A stretch of 24,813 nucleotides of DNA from a virus (lineage: Duplodnaviria; Heunggongvirae; Uroviricota; Caudoviricetes): the IMG/VR virus record IMGVR_UViG_2529292921_000026; one strand, written 5' to 3'. The position numbers were made by a program, and so were the translations under genes. The notes beneath the pieces were generated by a model. That model was not told the DNA's origin. It made no database searches and saw only the letters and a program-made list of their open reading frames with translations. Shown here piece by piece: positions 3,541 to 13,537 of this stretch (positions within the stretch are counted from its first letter, which is position 1; each line of letters opens with the position of its first letter).

Positions 3541-3951
3541 TCAGTATGTAAAATAGACAGTTGCCACGCCGTTATAGTGATCAAACGATACGGCATTTAC
3601 TTCGTAGCTGGCAGGGAGCTTCGATCCGAGAACGTATCCGGGCCACGTTTTCCATGGAATTTCTCTGCGCTCACTATCGCCATATACCGTACATCCCAGA
3701 GAGCCTACAGCTTCATTAGAACGCGTGCCGCACGTTATGAATCCCAGATTTTGCTTACTGCTCTTAATGGTGATTGGGTGAACGCTGGCTGATGCATTAG
3801 CAGCACGCTGTGCCTGTTGGTTTGCGATATTCGCAGAGTTCGCAGCAGCTACAGCAGCCGTAGTCGCGGCGGTAGAGGCTACAATAGCTGCTGAAGCATG
3901 CACTTGTTGGATATTCACCAACAATGCCGCGACAAAAATCATCTTCTTCAC
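3541..3951 (-). CDS. secreted/periplasmic protein with signal peptide, unknown function
   Basis: N-terminus MKKMIFVAALLVNIQQVHA-SAA is a classic Sec signal peptide, followed by an Ala/Thr-rich linker and a two-Cys domain. GTG start at 3951 has AAGGAG 7 nt upstream and overlaps the upstream stop (GTGA). Confidence 0.5.
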   Translation of the reverse strand: MKKMIFVAALLVNIQQVHASAAIVASTAATTAAVAAANSANIANQQAQRAANASASVHPITIKSSKQNLGFITCGTRSNEAVGSLGCTVYGDSERREIPWKTWPGYVLGSKLPASYEVNAVSFDHYNGVATVYFTY

Positions 3952-5842: not shown

Positions 5843-6205
5843 TTAATGACCTGCTGCGCGTAGTTTTCCGTCAGGTTCACCGGCAAGAGTCAGTAATTGT
5901 CCCTGGTCTTCCTGCAGAATAGTCAGGCGACCACCGCGATTGACATACATCGGTGTTTCGGTGGTGTCTTCTTCGGAAATTTTCCCGCGGTTAGTCGGGC
6001 GAACATATGAGAGTTTGTGTTTGATTTTCACACGGTTCTCATCAAATGGTTCGATTTCCAGGTTGAGCGAGACCTTACCTTTGGTTTTCGTGTTCATCAC
6101 ACCGGAAGCGACTTCACTGAGAGCTGCGCCGATTTTGGTTTCAAATACGCCGCCGTCCAGCTCCCCGATAAATGCCTGCACATCAGTACTGCGTTCGCTA
6201 GCCAT
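5843..6205 (-). CDS. hypothetical protein, first gene of the leftward (PL-like) operon (YfdP-like?)
   Basis: ATG at 6205-6203 has GAGGAG 7 nt upstream and gives 120 aa (MASERSTDVQAFIGELDGG...). The ORF track's longer 182-aa version extends upstream through Cys/Arg-rich sequence that looks non-coding. Not Arg-rich at the N-terminus, so not an N-like antiterminator. Confidence 0.45.
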   Translation of the reverse strand: MASERSTDVQAFIGELDGGVFETKIGAALSEVASGVMNTKTKGKVSLNLEIEPFDENRVKIKHKLSYVRPTNRGKISEEDTTETPMYVNRGGRLTILQEDQGQLLTLAGEPDGKLRAAGH

Positions 6206-6253
6206 TTTGCTGCTCCTCATCATATCGACCCTGCAAGGTCGGTTAGTTTCTCC

Positions 6254-6398
6254 ACAAAACAGAGAAGAACACCTGCGGTGGCAGCCGCCCGGATGGATTG
6301 GGTTATGAGCCCGTCGTCCGGTGATGTTCTTCTCTGTTTTGTAAAAAGAGCGGTACCAGCCGGAAGCAAGTGTACAAACTGGTACCGCCAAAGCAGTG
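6254..6398 (-). promoter_or_regulatory. structured leader of the leftward transcript: two hairpins plus a boxA-like motif (putative nut/put-like element)
   Basis: 18-bp perfect inverted repeat ACAAAACAGAGAAGAACA(6254-6271) / TGTTCTTCTCTGTTTTGT(6325-6342). A second 10-bp inverted repeat GCGGTACCAG(6349-6358) / CTGGTACCGC(6389-6398). On the minus strand the sequence CGCTCTTTTTACAAAA (6353-6338) resembles boxA (CGCTCTTA / rrn GCTCTTTAACAA). Confidence 0.3.
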
Positions 6399-6546
6399 GC
6401 TGTTGTGGTGACCGGTGCTGATCTCCGGCTTGCGGTTATTTCAGACTCTCACGGGCGTTTAATTGCCCCGCCGAACAGCTCTTTTCCGCAATAGCTGCAA
6501 TGTCTTTCGCGCATCAGCCTGCGCATTCACCACAACTCTAAAAACA

Positions 6547-6600
6547 AATGTAGGATATCCAACATGCGAGTGTCAAGAGTTTATGTTGGTTATCCTACAT
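6547..6600. promoter_or_regulatory. left operator/promoter (OL/PL-like) for the leftward operon
   Basis: Near-palindromic 18-mer ATGTAGGATATCCAACAT (6548-6565) and a second copy ATGTTGGTTATCCTACAT (6583-6600). On the minus strand TTGACA (6576-6571) sits 17 bp upstream of CTACAT (6553-6548), a -35/-10 arrangement overlapped by the operator. Confidence 0.5.
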
Positions 6601-6616
6601 AAAAAGATAGGCTCAT

Positions 6617-6642
6617 AAAAAAACCGGGGATACCCCGGTTTT
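6617..6642 (-). terminator. rho-independent terminator downstream of the repressor gene
   Basis: Hairpin CCGGGG(6624-6629)-ATA-CCCCGG(6633-6638) is flanked by 7 A (6617-6623, a T-run on the minus strand) and by TTTT on the plus strand. It lies 20 bp beyond the repressor stop. Confidence 0.45.
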
Positions 6643-6662
6643 GCGATAGTGAGGAAGATGTG

Positions 6663-7316
6663 TCAAAAATCCATTATTACTTGTTTGACAAGACCAACTA
6701 TTCTGCAGTTCTCACCGCATTCAATAGTTTTATAGTTAGGATTTAGTGGGACGAGATACCTGTTCGGCCAGTCCTCAACAAATTTTTTGAGTGTCGCTTC
6801 TTGCCCACCATTGATATGGGCAACAACGATTTTTCCGTTAATACACTCTGTATCAATAATATCTGGCTCTACGATAACGATAGAACCTTCTGGTATCGAT
6901 GGTGAGCCGAGGGGATTGGTCATTGAATCACCACGGACCCGTAGTGCAAATGCCATTTCTGATACAAGGGCGGTAGTATAAACCCACTCTTCAGCATCTT
7001 CTTTCCTGACACCAGGCTCCGTCATTGTCCATGAACCCGCCTGAACCCACGAGATTAGGGGGACTTTTTTAACTGCGAATATTTCAGGTTTTAGATTTAT
7101 CTTTGGTTCAGGCGAGCCTTTTCCGCTAACAAGCCACAGAGGATCGCATTTAAGTGCGTTGGCTAGGGCTTGAAGGTTGGCTCCATTTGGTTGGTAGTCG
7201 TCCTTTTCCCATCCAGTAACCGTGACACGGTTCACACCAGTCAAATCAGCCAGTGCTTGTTGTGTCAGGTTCAGTTCTTTTCGCCTTTGGCGAATACGAT
7301 CACTCATGTTCATCAT
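6663..7316 (-). CDS. CI/C2-like prophage repressor (N-terminal HTH-XRE, C-terminal S24 LexA-like peptidase)
   Basis: N-terminus RIRQRRKELNLTQQALADLTGVNRVTVTGWE is an XRE-type HTH. The C-terminal domain carries the S24 self-cleavage serine motif (RVRGDSMTNP) and a catalytic Lys region. Overall it resembles P22 C2 as I recall it, and it sits between the two operator regions. Confidence 0.8.
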   Translation of the reverse strand: MMNMSDRIRQRRKELNLTQQALADLTGVNRVTVTGWEKDDYQPNGANLQALANALKCDPLWLVSGKGSPEPKINLKPEIFAVKKVPLISWVQAGSWTMTEPGVRKEDAEEWVYTTALVSEMAFALRVRGDSMTNPLGSPSIPEGSIVIVEPDIIDTECINGKIVVAHINGGQEATLKKFVEDWPNRYLVPLNPNYKTIECGENCRIVGLVKQVIMDF

Positions 7317-7338
7317 GTAGGCAATCCTACCACATGCC

Positions 7339-7380
7339 CATGTAGGATTCTTGACATTGGCATGTTGGATATCCTACATT
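7339..7380. promoter_or_regulatory. right operator/promoter (OR/PR-like) for cro and the rightward operon
   Basis: ATGTTGGATATCCTACAT (7362-7379) plus a degenerate copy ATGTAGGATTCTTGACAT (7339-7356). TTGACA (7351-7356) is followed 18 bp later by TACATT (7375-7380). A 33-bp block here is a near-exact inverted copy of 6547-6579. Confidence 0.5.
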
Positions 7381-7411
7381 TCTGCTTAACGTAATTTAAC
7401 GGGAGACAGAA

Positions 7412-7609
7412 ATGCGGAAATCCGACGTGATTAATTATTTCGGCGGAGTTTGTAAAACCGCCGAAGCCCTAGGTATTAAGCATCCGTCTGTTTCAGAGTG
7501 GCCTGAGATTATTCCTGAAGGCCGAGCGTACCAGTTAGAAAAAATTACTAACGGGAAACTGAAAGTTGACGTGTCTTTATATCAAAAGACTAACAGTGCT
7601 GCGGCATAA
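7412..7609 (+). CDS. cro: Cro-like transcriptional regulator (P22 Cro family)
   Basis: 65-aa ORF (MRKSDVINYFGG...ALGIKHPSVSEWPEIIPEGRAYQLEKIT) resembles P22 Cro as I recall it. GGGAGA RBS upstream; divergent from the repressor across the operator region. Confidence 0.7.
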   Translation: MRKSDVINYFGGVCKTAEALGIKHPSVSEWPEIIPEGRAYQLEKITNGKLKVDVSLYQKTNSAAA

Positions 7610-7636
7610 AAACACCACAGAAATGAGGAATTAACC

Positions 7637-8221
7637 GTGGGTAAAGAACCTGAATGGAAAGTTGATAAACAACCAGCATGGCTGGTGGCAGCAATACGAA
7701 GAACGATTGCTGATTTACCTCATGGCTATGAGGAAGCAGCAGAAATTCTTGGTTTGTATAAATCTGATGATATCACCCCAGCAAAAGATCAATTGCATAA
7801 CAGACTGCGTAGCGGTGGGGATCAAATTTTTCCACTTGAGTGGGCCATGGTTTTACAGGATGCCAGTGGTACCAGGCATGTAACGGATGCGATAGCGCGT
7901 CGTAGTAATGGGGTGTTTGTGCCGCTGGTGGACATTGATGACATTGACAATGGTGACATTAATCAGCGGCTGATGGAGTCAATAGAATGGATTGGCAAGC
8001 ATTCCCAGTACTTACGCAAGGCAACTGCTGATGGAGTTATTGACCAGGCTGAGCGTGAGCAAATCGAAGAGAACAGCTACCAAGTAATGGCGAAGTGGCA
8101 GGAGCATTTAACACTGTTATTTCGTGTTTTTTGTGCACCGGAAAAGAGTAACGCCCGCGAGTGTGCAGCTCCGGGCGTCGTGGCGTCGATTGCTTCTGGT
8201 TGTGGAGAAACTAACGCATGA
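7637..8221 (+). CDS. phage CII-like regulatory protein (CP76-type), putative
   Basis: GTG start at 7637 has GAGG 8 nt upstream and follows cro by 27 bp. The 194-aa product has a central helix region. Family assignment is from position and weak recall only. Confidence 0.4.
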   Translation: MGKEPEWKVDKQPAWLVAAIRRTIADLPHGYEEAAEILGLYKSDDITPAKDQLHNRLRSGGDQIFPLEWAMVLQDASGTRHVTDAIARRSNGVFVPLVDIDDIDNGDINQRLMESIEWIGKHSQYLRKATADGVIDQAEREQIEENSYQVMAKWQEHLTLLFRVFCAPEKSNARECAAPGVVASIASGCGETNA

Positions 8222-8366
8222 ACAGTTTAACGGCAAATAACCGTTTGTCGCAACAGCTGGTGGTCAGCGTCGCTGAACACCTGTTGTTACGGCATGAATG
8301 CAGATTACCAAATCACCTGGCTGTAAGTAACCACAGAGAACTTTACCTGACTGTGGGGGGCGAGTT

Positions 8367-8546
8367 GTGCAGGAACTTAACCGCTGGTTTCGTGACGGAA
8401 GAGGGCTTTATGTCCATGTTATTCGTTGGGAGCCAGAAACACAGCGCGTTATCTATCTTCGCAAAGACTACCCGCATGAGTGCTTTAGTCCTTTGTGGAA
8501 ATTCAGGCGTGATTTTGTTGAGTGTGAAGGACCACCAGCACATTGA
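8367..8546 (+). CDS. candidate small protein (59 aa) in the cII-rha gap
   Basis: Frame-3 ORF with GTG at 8367 preceded by a GGGGGG run and a 6-nt spacer. Translation MQELNRWFRDGRGLYVHVIRWEPETQRVIYLRKDYPHECFSPLWKFRRDFVECEGPPAH has protein-like composition. It is below the ORF-track cutoff and competes with a frame-1 ORF. Confidence 0.3.
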   Translation: MQELNRWFRDGRGLYVHVIRWEPETQRVIYLRKDYPHECFSPLWKFRRDFVECEGPPAH

Positions 8547-8631
8547 TTCTGCCATTCCGGGACGTTACACTGTTCAGGCACCTTATAAAGCGGGTGCCGG
8601 GATTGGCGTCCTGAAATTGATTACTGAGCAT

Positions 8632-8653
8632 AACCGCGCTCATGCGGTTTTTT
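8632..8653 (+). terminator. weak terminator-like hairpin plus T-run (tR-like)
   Basis: AACCGC(8632-8637)-GCTCAT-GCGGTT(8644-8649) followed by TTTT (8650-8653), within the 600-bp stretch between the CII-like and Rha-like genes. Confidence 0.3.
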
Positions 8654-8823
8654 CGTGTCATGAGCATTGCTACGCCCAAATTATGGTGGGGCGTACAGGG
8701 CCGACTTCGGTCGGGCCGGGTTCGGTAGTCTCCGGTAACGCCAACCCTGTACGTCTCACCACCTCTGTGATTGGCGTCCCATGTGGTGAGTTTTCTGAAA
8801 AACTGACTACCGGGGCTGTCACC

Positions 8824-9381
8824 ATGACTACTCTCCCAACCCTCTCTCAACCTGAAATTGCCATCGTTGATGGTCAGGCTGTTACATCTTCTTTGGCTGT
8901 TGCTGACTTCTTCTCTAAACGTCATGACGATGTTCTGAAAAAGATCCGCATTTTGGATTGTTCTCCAGAGTTTTGTGCCCGCAATTTTGCGGAGACATCA
9001 ATTTTGGTACACCAGCCCAACGGCGGTACTCGCAAACTTCCTTGCTACCACATCACCCGTGACGGCTTCGCGTTCCTGGCAATGGGCTTCACTGGCAAAC
9101 GTGCTGCCCAGTTCAAAGAGGCATACATCAATGCCTTTAACCAGATGGAGAAACAGCTTTCAAAGCCCTCTGTACCGAGCGACGTTGCACATAACGCCAG
9201 CGTTCTCTATTCCTACATTTCATCAATTCATCAGGTCTGGTTGCAGCAGCTTTATCCCATGCTGGAAAAAGCTGAATCACCGCTGGCTGTAAGTCTGTAT
9301 GACCGAATTAACGATGCGGCATTTCTTGCCCGTCTTATTCATTCGTCGCTGAACTCTTCAGAGGTAAGGGGGCGCAAATGA
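8824..9381 (+). CDS. Rha-family phage regulatory protein
   Basis: N-terminal IAIVDGQAVTSSLAVADFFSKRHDDVLKKIR matches the Rha-domain signature (V-T-S-L-x-IAE-x-FGKRHxxVLRxI). ATG at 8824 has GGGG 8 nt upstream. The ORF track's 387-aa version adds a 200-aa upstream extension that I consider unlikely. Confidence 0.6.
   Translation: MTTLPTLSQPEIAIVDGQAVTSSLAVADFFSKRHDDVLKKIRILDCSPEFCARNFAETSILVHQPNGGTRKLPCYHITRDGFAFLAMGFTGKRAAQFKEAYINAFNQMEKQLSKPSVPSDVAHNASVLYSYISSIHQVWLQQLYPMLEKAESPLAVSLYDRINDAAFLARLIHSSLNSSEVRGRK

Positions 9382-11082: not shown

Positions 11083-13537
<2,455 letters not shown>

Follow-up and report, generated by a model that had tools for sequence, protein, structure and literature searches.

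In bacteriophage λ, the repressor gene lies between divergent early promoters that are overlapped by operators, and cro is transcribed from the rightward promoter PR. The λ operators OL1 and OR1 differ little in sequence, and each early promoter has a -35 hexamer of the TTGAC type. In phage P22, the repressor recognizes six rotationally symmetric 18-bp sites, contacting positions 2-7 and 12-17 of each and sensing the central four by an indirect readout that favors A/T, with Asn46 at the mouth of the minor groove (PMC4267663). A lambdoid switch with a non-canonical number of operators has been described for the Shiga toxin (Stx) phage 933W (Tyler et al. 2004; Bullwinkle et al. 2012, PMC3317979). 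The present analysis concerns a 24,813-nucleotide stretch of DNA from a virus of the Caudoviricetes (IMG/VR record IMGVR_UViG_2529292921_000026), referred to throughout as the window, and within it a pair of near-identical 33-bp blocks in inverted orientation that flank the gene for a cI-type repressor. With a probability of about 0.88, these blocks are the left operator and promoter (OL/PL) and the right operator and promoter (OR/PR) of a lambdoid prophage immunity region organized like immC of P22, and an 18-mer within them is the predicted operator. The arrangement itself is the standard lambdoid, textbook immunity switch; for the predicted operator sequence and its specificity, no published description was found.

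The reverse complement of positions 6547-6579 reads CTCTTGACACTCGCATGTTGGATATCCTACATT and positions 7348-7380 read TTCTTGACATTGGCATGTTGGATATCCTACATT, the two being identical at 30 of 33 bases. A search for repeats gives a longer inverted repeat of 40 nt, with arms 88% identical (6539-6578 and 7349-7388). The first-pass annotation had described inverted blocks, each with a perfect TTGACA, a 17-18 bp spacer and a -10-like hexamer overlapped by an 18-mer, and a second, degenerate 18-mer on each side. All of this is borne out: both promoters have the form TTGACA-18-TACATT (10/12), and the second sites lie at 6583-6600 on the left (one mismatch) and 7315-7332 on the right (four mismatches). When the window was scanned for the 18-mer ATGTTGGATATCCTACAT at three mismatches or fewer, only the copies at 6548-6565 (none, minus strand), 6583-6600 (one) and 7362-7379 (none) were returned, against a chance expectation of 0.00. 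Four perfect copies of the 9-mer half-site ATGTAGGAT are present in the window, every one within the left or right operator region. A looser scan adds 7315-7332 (ATGTAGGCAATCCTACCA, four mismatches) and 7340-7357 (ATGTAGGATTCTTGACAT, left half-site only). The resulting map, from left to right, is as follows.

6547 to 6576, minus strand: PL, predicted leftward early promoter, with -35 TTGACA at 6576-6571, an 18-bp spacer and -10 TACATT at 6552-6547 (10/12)
6548 to 6565, no strand assigned: OL1, putative operator with the exact consensus ATGTTGGATATCCTACAT on the minus strand, spanning the PL spacer and -10
6583 to 6600, no strand assigned: OL2, putative operator ATGTTGGTTATCCTACAT with one mismatch, just upstream of the PL -35
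6663 to 7316, minus strand: gene for the cI-type repressor of 217 amino acids (HTH_3, 1.1e-15; Peptidase_S24, 3.7e-25)
7315 to 7332, no strand assigned: OR3, putative operator with four mismatches, overlapping the cI start codon by two bases
7340 to 7357, no strand assigned: OR2 candidate, with a perfect left half-site and its right half replaced by the PR -35
7351 to 7380, plus strand: PR, predicted rightward early promoter, with -35 TTGACA at 7351-7356, an 18-bp spacer and -10 TACATT at 7375-7380 (10/12)
7362 to 7379, no strand assigned: OR1, putative operator with the exact consensus ATGTTGGATATCCTACAT, spanning the PR spacer and -10

Transcription is predicted to start near 6540 from PL and near 7387 from PR. 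The center of OL2 lies 35 bp from that of OL1. On the right, two clear sites and one half-site stand at the expected spacing (7362-7379, 7340-7357 and 7315-7332), with 25 bp between OR3 and OR2 and 22 bp between OR2 and OR1. OL1 and OR1 share one asymmetry, the half on the -35 side reading ATGTTGG and the half on the -10 side ATGTAGG (CCTACAT). The T that distinguishes the inner half, on the -35 side, is conserved. The half that carries the -10 is almost never altered in relatives, and this outer half doubles as the -10 TACATT. Besides OR3, two 18-mers with four mismatches occur in the window, at 3904-3921 (TTGTTGGATATTCACCAA) and 12342-12359 (ATGATGGAACTGCAACAT); neither has any backing context, and both were judged to be chance matches, or in any case unsupported. 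Since three such sites were observed against 0.29 expected, one of the two may be real.

The repressor is homologous over its full length to λ cI (3bdn, 7e-25), including the C-terminal domain for oligomerization and self-cleavage, and its N-terminal domain matches that of P22 c2 (5.7e-14). An Ala-Gly pair (A93-G94) and the Ser131 of a GDSM motif are invariant among its relatives. The likeness to P22 extends from the protein to its sites. The predicted operators have the same 18-bp length and 7+4+7 geometry, with conserved arms and a variable, A/T-rich center; the repressor is 44-45% identical to c2 as a whole protein and retains the equivalents of Val33, Trp38, Glu39 and Asn46; and the Cro protein belongs to the P22_Cro family. 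In a phage of P22 immunity, OR3 (AGTTAAGTCATCTTAAAT) lies directly against the start codon of c2, with a step of 25 bp to OR2 and one of 23 bp from there to OR1; the corresponding distances here are 25 and 22 bp. The differences are equally clear. The half-site is ATGTAGG here and ATTTAAG in P22, so that positions 3 and 6 differ, and the recognition helix is NRVTVTG here and SNVAISQ in P22, with six of nine positions differing; a different immunity specificity is therefore predicted. Moreover, PR lies about 12 bp further right relative to the operators, its -35 occupying what would be the right half of OR2; at OL, two sites separated by 35 bp stand against three in P22; and the activator is a CII of the CP76 type, where P22 has c1. 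The comparison with P22-like operators that had been proposed at the outset thus yields a divided answer, with site geometry and OR spacing shared and the half-site sequence different. As far as can be predicted from its sequence, the immunity element works like immC of P22, yet is not of P22 immunity.

The resemblance to λ lies in the overall plan, in which a repressor gene stands between divergent, operator-overlapped early promoters and cro is transcribed from PR. In other respects the two differ: the operators are 18 bp long here and 17 bp in λ, with unrelated sequence; rexAB genes are absent and only 814 bp separate OL from OR; OR2 is degenerate; and neither an N gene nor nutL was recognized downstream of PL. 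Phage 933W offers a parallel as a Stx phage with a lambdoid switch and a non-canonical operator number, but its repressor belongs to a different clade (about 34-36% identity) and its operator sequence is unrelated. The closest sequenced phage relatives are mEp390 and the Yersinia phages YeP1-3, with repressors 61-66% identical. In mEp390, the sites occupy the same positions, with half-sites TGTAGGAT and TGTAAGAT, and the recognition helix is the same, although the sites are two to four mismatches off the present consensus.

To examine conservation, relatives were picked by repressor protein similarity alone, without reference to the DNA motif. They comprise sequences from Enterobacter soli (84% repressor identity), Pantoea brenneri (76%) and Erwinia tracheiphila (88-90%), and phage mEp390 (61%). 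The non-coding alignment falls into conserved islands consisting of OR3, the PR -35 with its adjoining half-site, OR1, OL1, the PL -35, the arms of OL2 and the A-run of a terminator behind the repressor gene, while the DNA between and outside these islands diverges or cannot be aligned. The TTGACA and TACATT of PL are kept at unchanged spacing in all five relatives aligned, and PR is conserved as well. OL1 is conserved across the relatives from Enterobacter, Pantoea and Erwinia as well as in mEp390, OR1 is identical in relatives with repressors 65-100% identical, and OR3 is almost invariant in all relatives, although non-coding. The terminator stems vary in sequence, but all still form hairpins beside the same A/T run. 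Within each relative, the 5-bp stretch that separates the -35 from the operator varies freely from the left block to the right, so that the near-identity of the two blocks reflects constraint on the -35 and the operator/-10 rather than recent duplication. On the protein side, where the operator has been retained, the helix-turn-helix GVNRVTVTGWE..YQPNG hardly varies among the repressors, one with an overall identity of just 49% included; the exceptions are one V-to-L change and a G for Asn in mEp390, while the linker and C-terminal domain drift. In Erwinia tracheiphila ICMP 5845 (L006, 1501-2153), the orthologous repressor gene is frameshifted into an open reading frame (ORF) of 167 amino acids and a tail ORF of 54 amino acids. 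OL1, OL2, OR1, OR3 and cro are intact there despite the frameshift.

A wider view comes from 99 IMG/VR contigs that were selected by an exact match to the 18-mer itself. In 96 of them the 18-mer adjoins a repressor homologue 49-100% identical to the present one; a further contig is cut by its end and has the same OR and cro. The remaining two contigs (L025 and L051) carry the exact 18-mer without a repressor, in unrelated coding DNA, and were set aside. Among 69 distinct flank combinations, the spacing between OL1 and OL2 is 35 bp in nearly all and 33 bp in one, and OR3 is placed at the repressor start codon in these relatives. In the 22 distinct variants of OL2, positions 2-4, 6-7, 12 and 15-18 carry 1.7-2.0 bits, and the central positions 8-11 carry 0.5-1.1 bits, being mostly A/T. 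Natural variation within the sites is also present. Among contigs that include L020 and L098, some otherwise identical immunity regions have a perfect consensus OL2, ATGTTGGATATCCTACAT replacing the form with GGTTAT, and other immunity regions have single changes in OR1, OL1 or OL2; such natural variants would be usable in binding studies.

The proposal that the 18-mer is the repressor operator, which the first-pass annotation had put forward as a prediction, agrees with every sequence-level test. It rests on the concordance of the protein families, the homology to λ cI and P22 c2, the footprint among relatives, the co-occurrence of 18-mer and repressor, and the invariant helix. In the mechanism that follows from this reading, dimers of the 217-amino-acid repressor would bind 18-bp sites of two-fold symmetry with the consensus ATGTAGG-(A/T-rich 4 bp)-CCTACAT. 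OL1 and OR1 would straddle the spacer and -10 of the divergent promoters, PL reading leftward and PR rightward into cro, the cII-like gene and replication genes. Repressor bound there would cover the spacer and -10, so that RNA polymerase would be excluded and the prophage kept silent; that dimers at OL1 and OR1 would block RNA polymerase at PL and PR can be proposed with high confidence. Contributions to cooperative binding from OL2, OR3 and the OR2 half-site can be proposed with moderate confidence. A similar, moderate confidence attaches to the role of OR3, whose position over the cI start may provide negative autoregulation of the repressor and a target for Cro in shutting it off. As the conserved residues suggest, SOS induction would lift repression through RecA-stimulated self-cleavage at Ala93-Gly94, carried out by Ser131 and a lysine.

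Several observations weigh against this reading. OR3 alone departs from the consensus at four positions, and chance would give 0.29 sites of this quality per window. OR2, the weakest element, is a half-site only and is poorly kept in the Pantoea and Erwinia relatives. No third OL site appears in a scan at five mismatches or fewer, so that OL has two sites as compared with three in λ and P22. Other known lambdoid phages deviate from three plus three operators as well, 933W having only two OL sites. No acceptable -35 for the promoter PRM reading leftward into cI was found by eye. The hexamer TAGGAT (7329-7324, minus strand) inside OR3 is a possible PRM -10 or Shine-Dalgarno sequence; it could serve as the -10 for a leaderless cI message or as the ribosome-binding site for longer transcripts (from PRE). 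An N-type antiterminator was not recognized downstream of PL, where only the first gene was scanned against the family library. An N-type antiterminator or nut site is not universal in lambdoid phages. A full-text search of a library of papers for the 18-mer and its sub-strings matched none. Finally, the choice of the IMG/VR contigs by the 18-mer means that independent evidence from them comes only from the other sites, their spacing and the proteins. As for the earlier description of the locus as a compact, almost symmetric immunity switch, the switch holds up in sequence-level tests and is a little less symmetric than described, OR having three positions and OL two.

One alternative accepts the divergent promoters as real but takes Cro or a host factor to be the main protein on the palindrome, with the S24 repressor acting elsewhere. 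Cro of lambdoid phages binds the same operators as the repressor, and with operators being shared, sequence alone cannot separate the two; in addition, a P22_Cro gene is adjacent and co-varies with cI. Yet it is the helix-turn-helix of the repressor that is essentially invariant where the 18-mer is kept, while the rest of the protein falls to as little as 49% identity, and the geometry of the sites is that of the homologous P22 c2 domain. As for a host factor, no LexA-like box (CTGT-N8-ACAG) is present in 6500-7420 at one mismatch or fewer. Shared use by Cro is expected and compatible with repressor operators at OL and OR, and an exclusive or predominant role for another protein is accordingly unlikely.

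The genes on either side of the blocks complete the immunity region, and are listed here with the terminator that follows the repressor.

6614 to 6642, minus strand: intrinsic terminator of the repressor transcript, with the hairpin CCGGGG-UAU-CCCCGG followed by U7
7412 to 7609, plus strand: cro, 65 amino acids (Pfam P22_Cro, 7.6e-22; phrog_409)
7637 to 8221, plus strand: gene for a CII-like activator of 194 amino acids (Pfam Phage_CP76, 4.8e-07; phrog_101, CII-like, 1.7e-62)

The terminator, directly after the repressor stop codon, was missed by a terminator scan and confirmed by direct folding (-17 kcal/mol, z = -3.0). After it, in order on the minus strand, come OL2, the PL -35 and OL1; because these follow the terminator on the same strand, the repressor and PL transcripts would be co-directional, as in λ. 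On the other side, cro diverges from the repressor gene across a short intergenic region, and the cII-type gene is next.

Downstream of PL, the predicted transcript has a leader of about 335 nt (6205-6540, minus strand) that contains no recognized gene and no Rfam match, and no N is annotated in the Escherichia phage Lys8385Vzw record, where the region is identical. The first PL gene, at 5843-6205, belongs to phrog_204, a family of unknown function. The empty leader, which runs antisense through a remnant of a gene like plp of phage P1, lends something to a second alternative, according to which only the right block is at work and the left one is a vestige or duplicate of PR/OR1 without promoter function. 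This is harder still to sustain than binding by Cro or a host factor. The -35, -10, OL1 and OL2 stand at fixed spacing in relatives of four genera whose flanks cannot be aligned; a co-oriented operon lies downstream, in which the phrog_204 gene is accompanied by genes for a YfdQ-like DUF2303 protein, an HD hydrolase and an exonuclease; and the 5-bp spacer that differs between left and right within each relative speaks against recent copying.

The immunity region is widely distributed and is bounded by mosaic junctions. The 1.3 kb around the blocks are 99.4-99.9% identical to phage Lys8385Vzw (Stx1, O103:H11) and three Stx2c-converting phages, and two smaller E. coli phages cover 96% of the same 1.3 kb at 99.7% identity. 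Among complete E. coli genomes, 140 of 5426 contain the region. In mEp460 and similar phages, the flanking genes are 95-99% identical and a different repressor is present, bracketed by palindromes of its own that differ from the present ones. On the left, the breakpoint is at 6536/6537, only a few bases beyond the position where PL transcription is predicted to begin; on the right, junctions fall near 7614 or 8129. The region is the classical swappable "imm" cassette of lambdoid phages. The 137 bp immediately to the left (6400-6536) are 98-100% identical in numerous phages with no other relationship, namely mEp460, Stx2a phages, the Salmonella/Klebsiella phage IME207 and P1-family phages; in the P1 family, the matching DNA is the 3' end of plp, a lipoprotein gene, together with 42 bp more. 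Every one of these matches ends at 6536, marking a recurrent recombination junction that bounds the immunity cassette. The least tenable alternative, that the blocks are terminal inverted repeats of a small cassette resembling an insertion sequence (IS) or a miniature inverted-repeat transposable element (MITE) that carries the repressor, can point to the 770 bp enclosed by the 40-nt, 88% inverted repeat and to the recurrent junction beside the left block, but is contradicted by the lack of a transposase (the sole gene between the arms being the HTH and S24 repressor) and of a flanking direct repeat (accacaactc at 6529-6538, acgtaattta at 7389-7398), by right junctions that do not fall at the right arm, by the recurrence of the 18-mer inside the supposed element at OL2 and OR3, by conservation in relatives of only the -35 and operator instead of the whole arm, and by a constant position between the cro and PL operons in 96 of 96 contexts examined.

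To the right of the cII-like gene lies a module that looks like a P1 immI-type antirepressor under antisense RNA control. Rfam returned nothing in or beside the blocks, its sole hits in the window being isrK (59 bits) at 8578-8654 and C4 antisense RNA (82 bits) at 8679-8766, both on the plus strand and inside an ORF of 387 amino acids (8218-9381) that is annotated "peptidase" in the Lys8385Vzw record. An intrinsic terminator at 8632-8649 ends the isrK-like element. A Pfam Phage_ASH match (amino acids 117-212) overlies the RNA genes, and the Rha/anti-repressor domain starts only near 8821; the 387-amino-acid ORF is probably a mis-call. A perfect CTGT-N8-ACAG (CTGTAAGTAACCACAG) is found at 8321-8336, upstream of this module (isrK/C4/antirepressor) by about 240 bp, and might act as a LexA box for the antirepressor. 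Matches to this pattern are not above chance in the window (11 observed, 8.9 expected), and no promoter was detected near 8321-8336.

The published records of this immunity type deserve comment. The paper on Lys8385Vzw reports CI, Cro, CII, CIII and N as absent from that Stx1 phage and does not describe operators (PMC7946995). The record itself (MT225100; L001, 7264-8822) does contain three of these genes in identical form, with cI labelled "LexA family transcriptional repressor", cro "hypothetical protein" and the cII-like gene "DNA-binding protein". A survey of the CI clades of Stx phages leaves their operator specificities unaddressed (PMC8951638).

Taken across hosts, the 18-mer ATGTAGG-N4-CCTACAT and the helix GVNRVTVTGWE may well represent one undescribed immunity specificity that extends over Escherichia (including Stx1 and Stx2c phages), Enterobacter, Pantoea, Erwinia and probably Yersinia, and that persists down to 49% repressor identity; the odds are slightly in favor of this broader proposal. 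If it is correct, mutual immunity across genus boundaries would be expected among phages of this single specificity, and changes to only a few residues of the recognition helix and to two half-site positions could move the specificity towards that of P22. The pair of repressor and operator is a close natural variant of the intensively studied P22 c2 pair, and would be usable for specificity-swap experiments. Nothing conceptually new about the working of such switches is implied; the value lies in the annotation, and in a testable operator and promoter map for the immunity type of Stx1- and Stx2c-converting phages. Because repressor stability controls Shiga toxin release, known operators would allow reporter and induction studies, and the map may thus serve as a handle for the study of Stx-phage induction.

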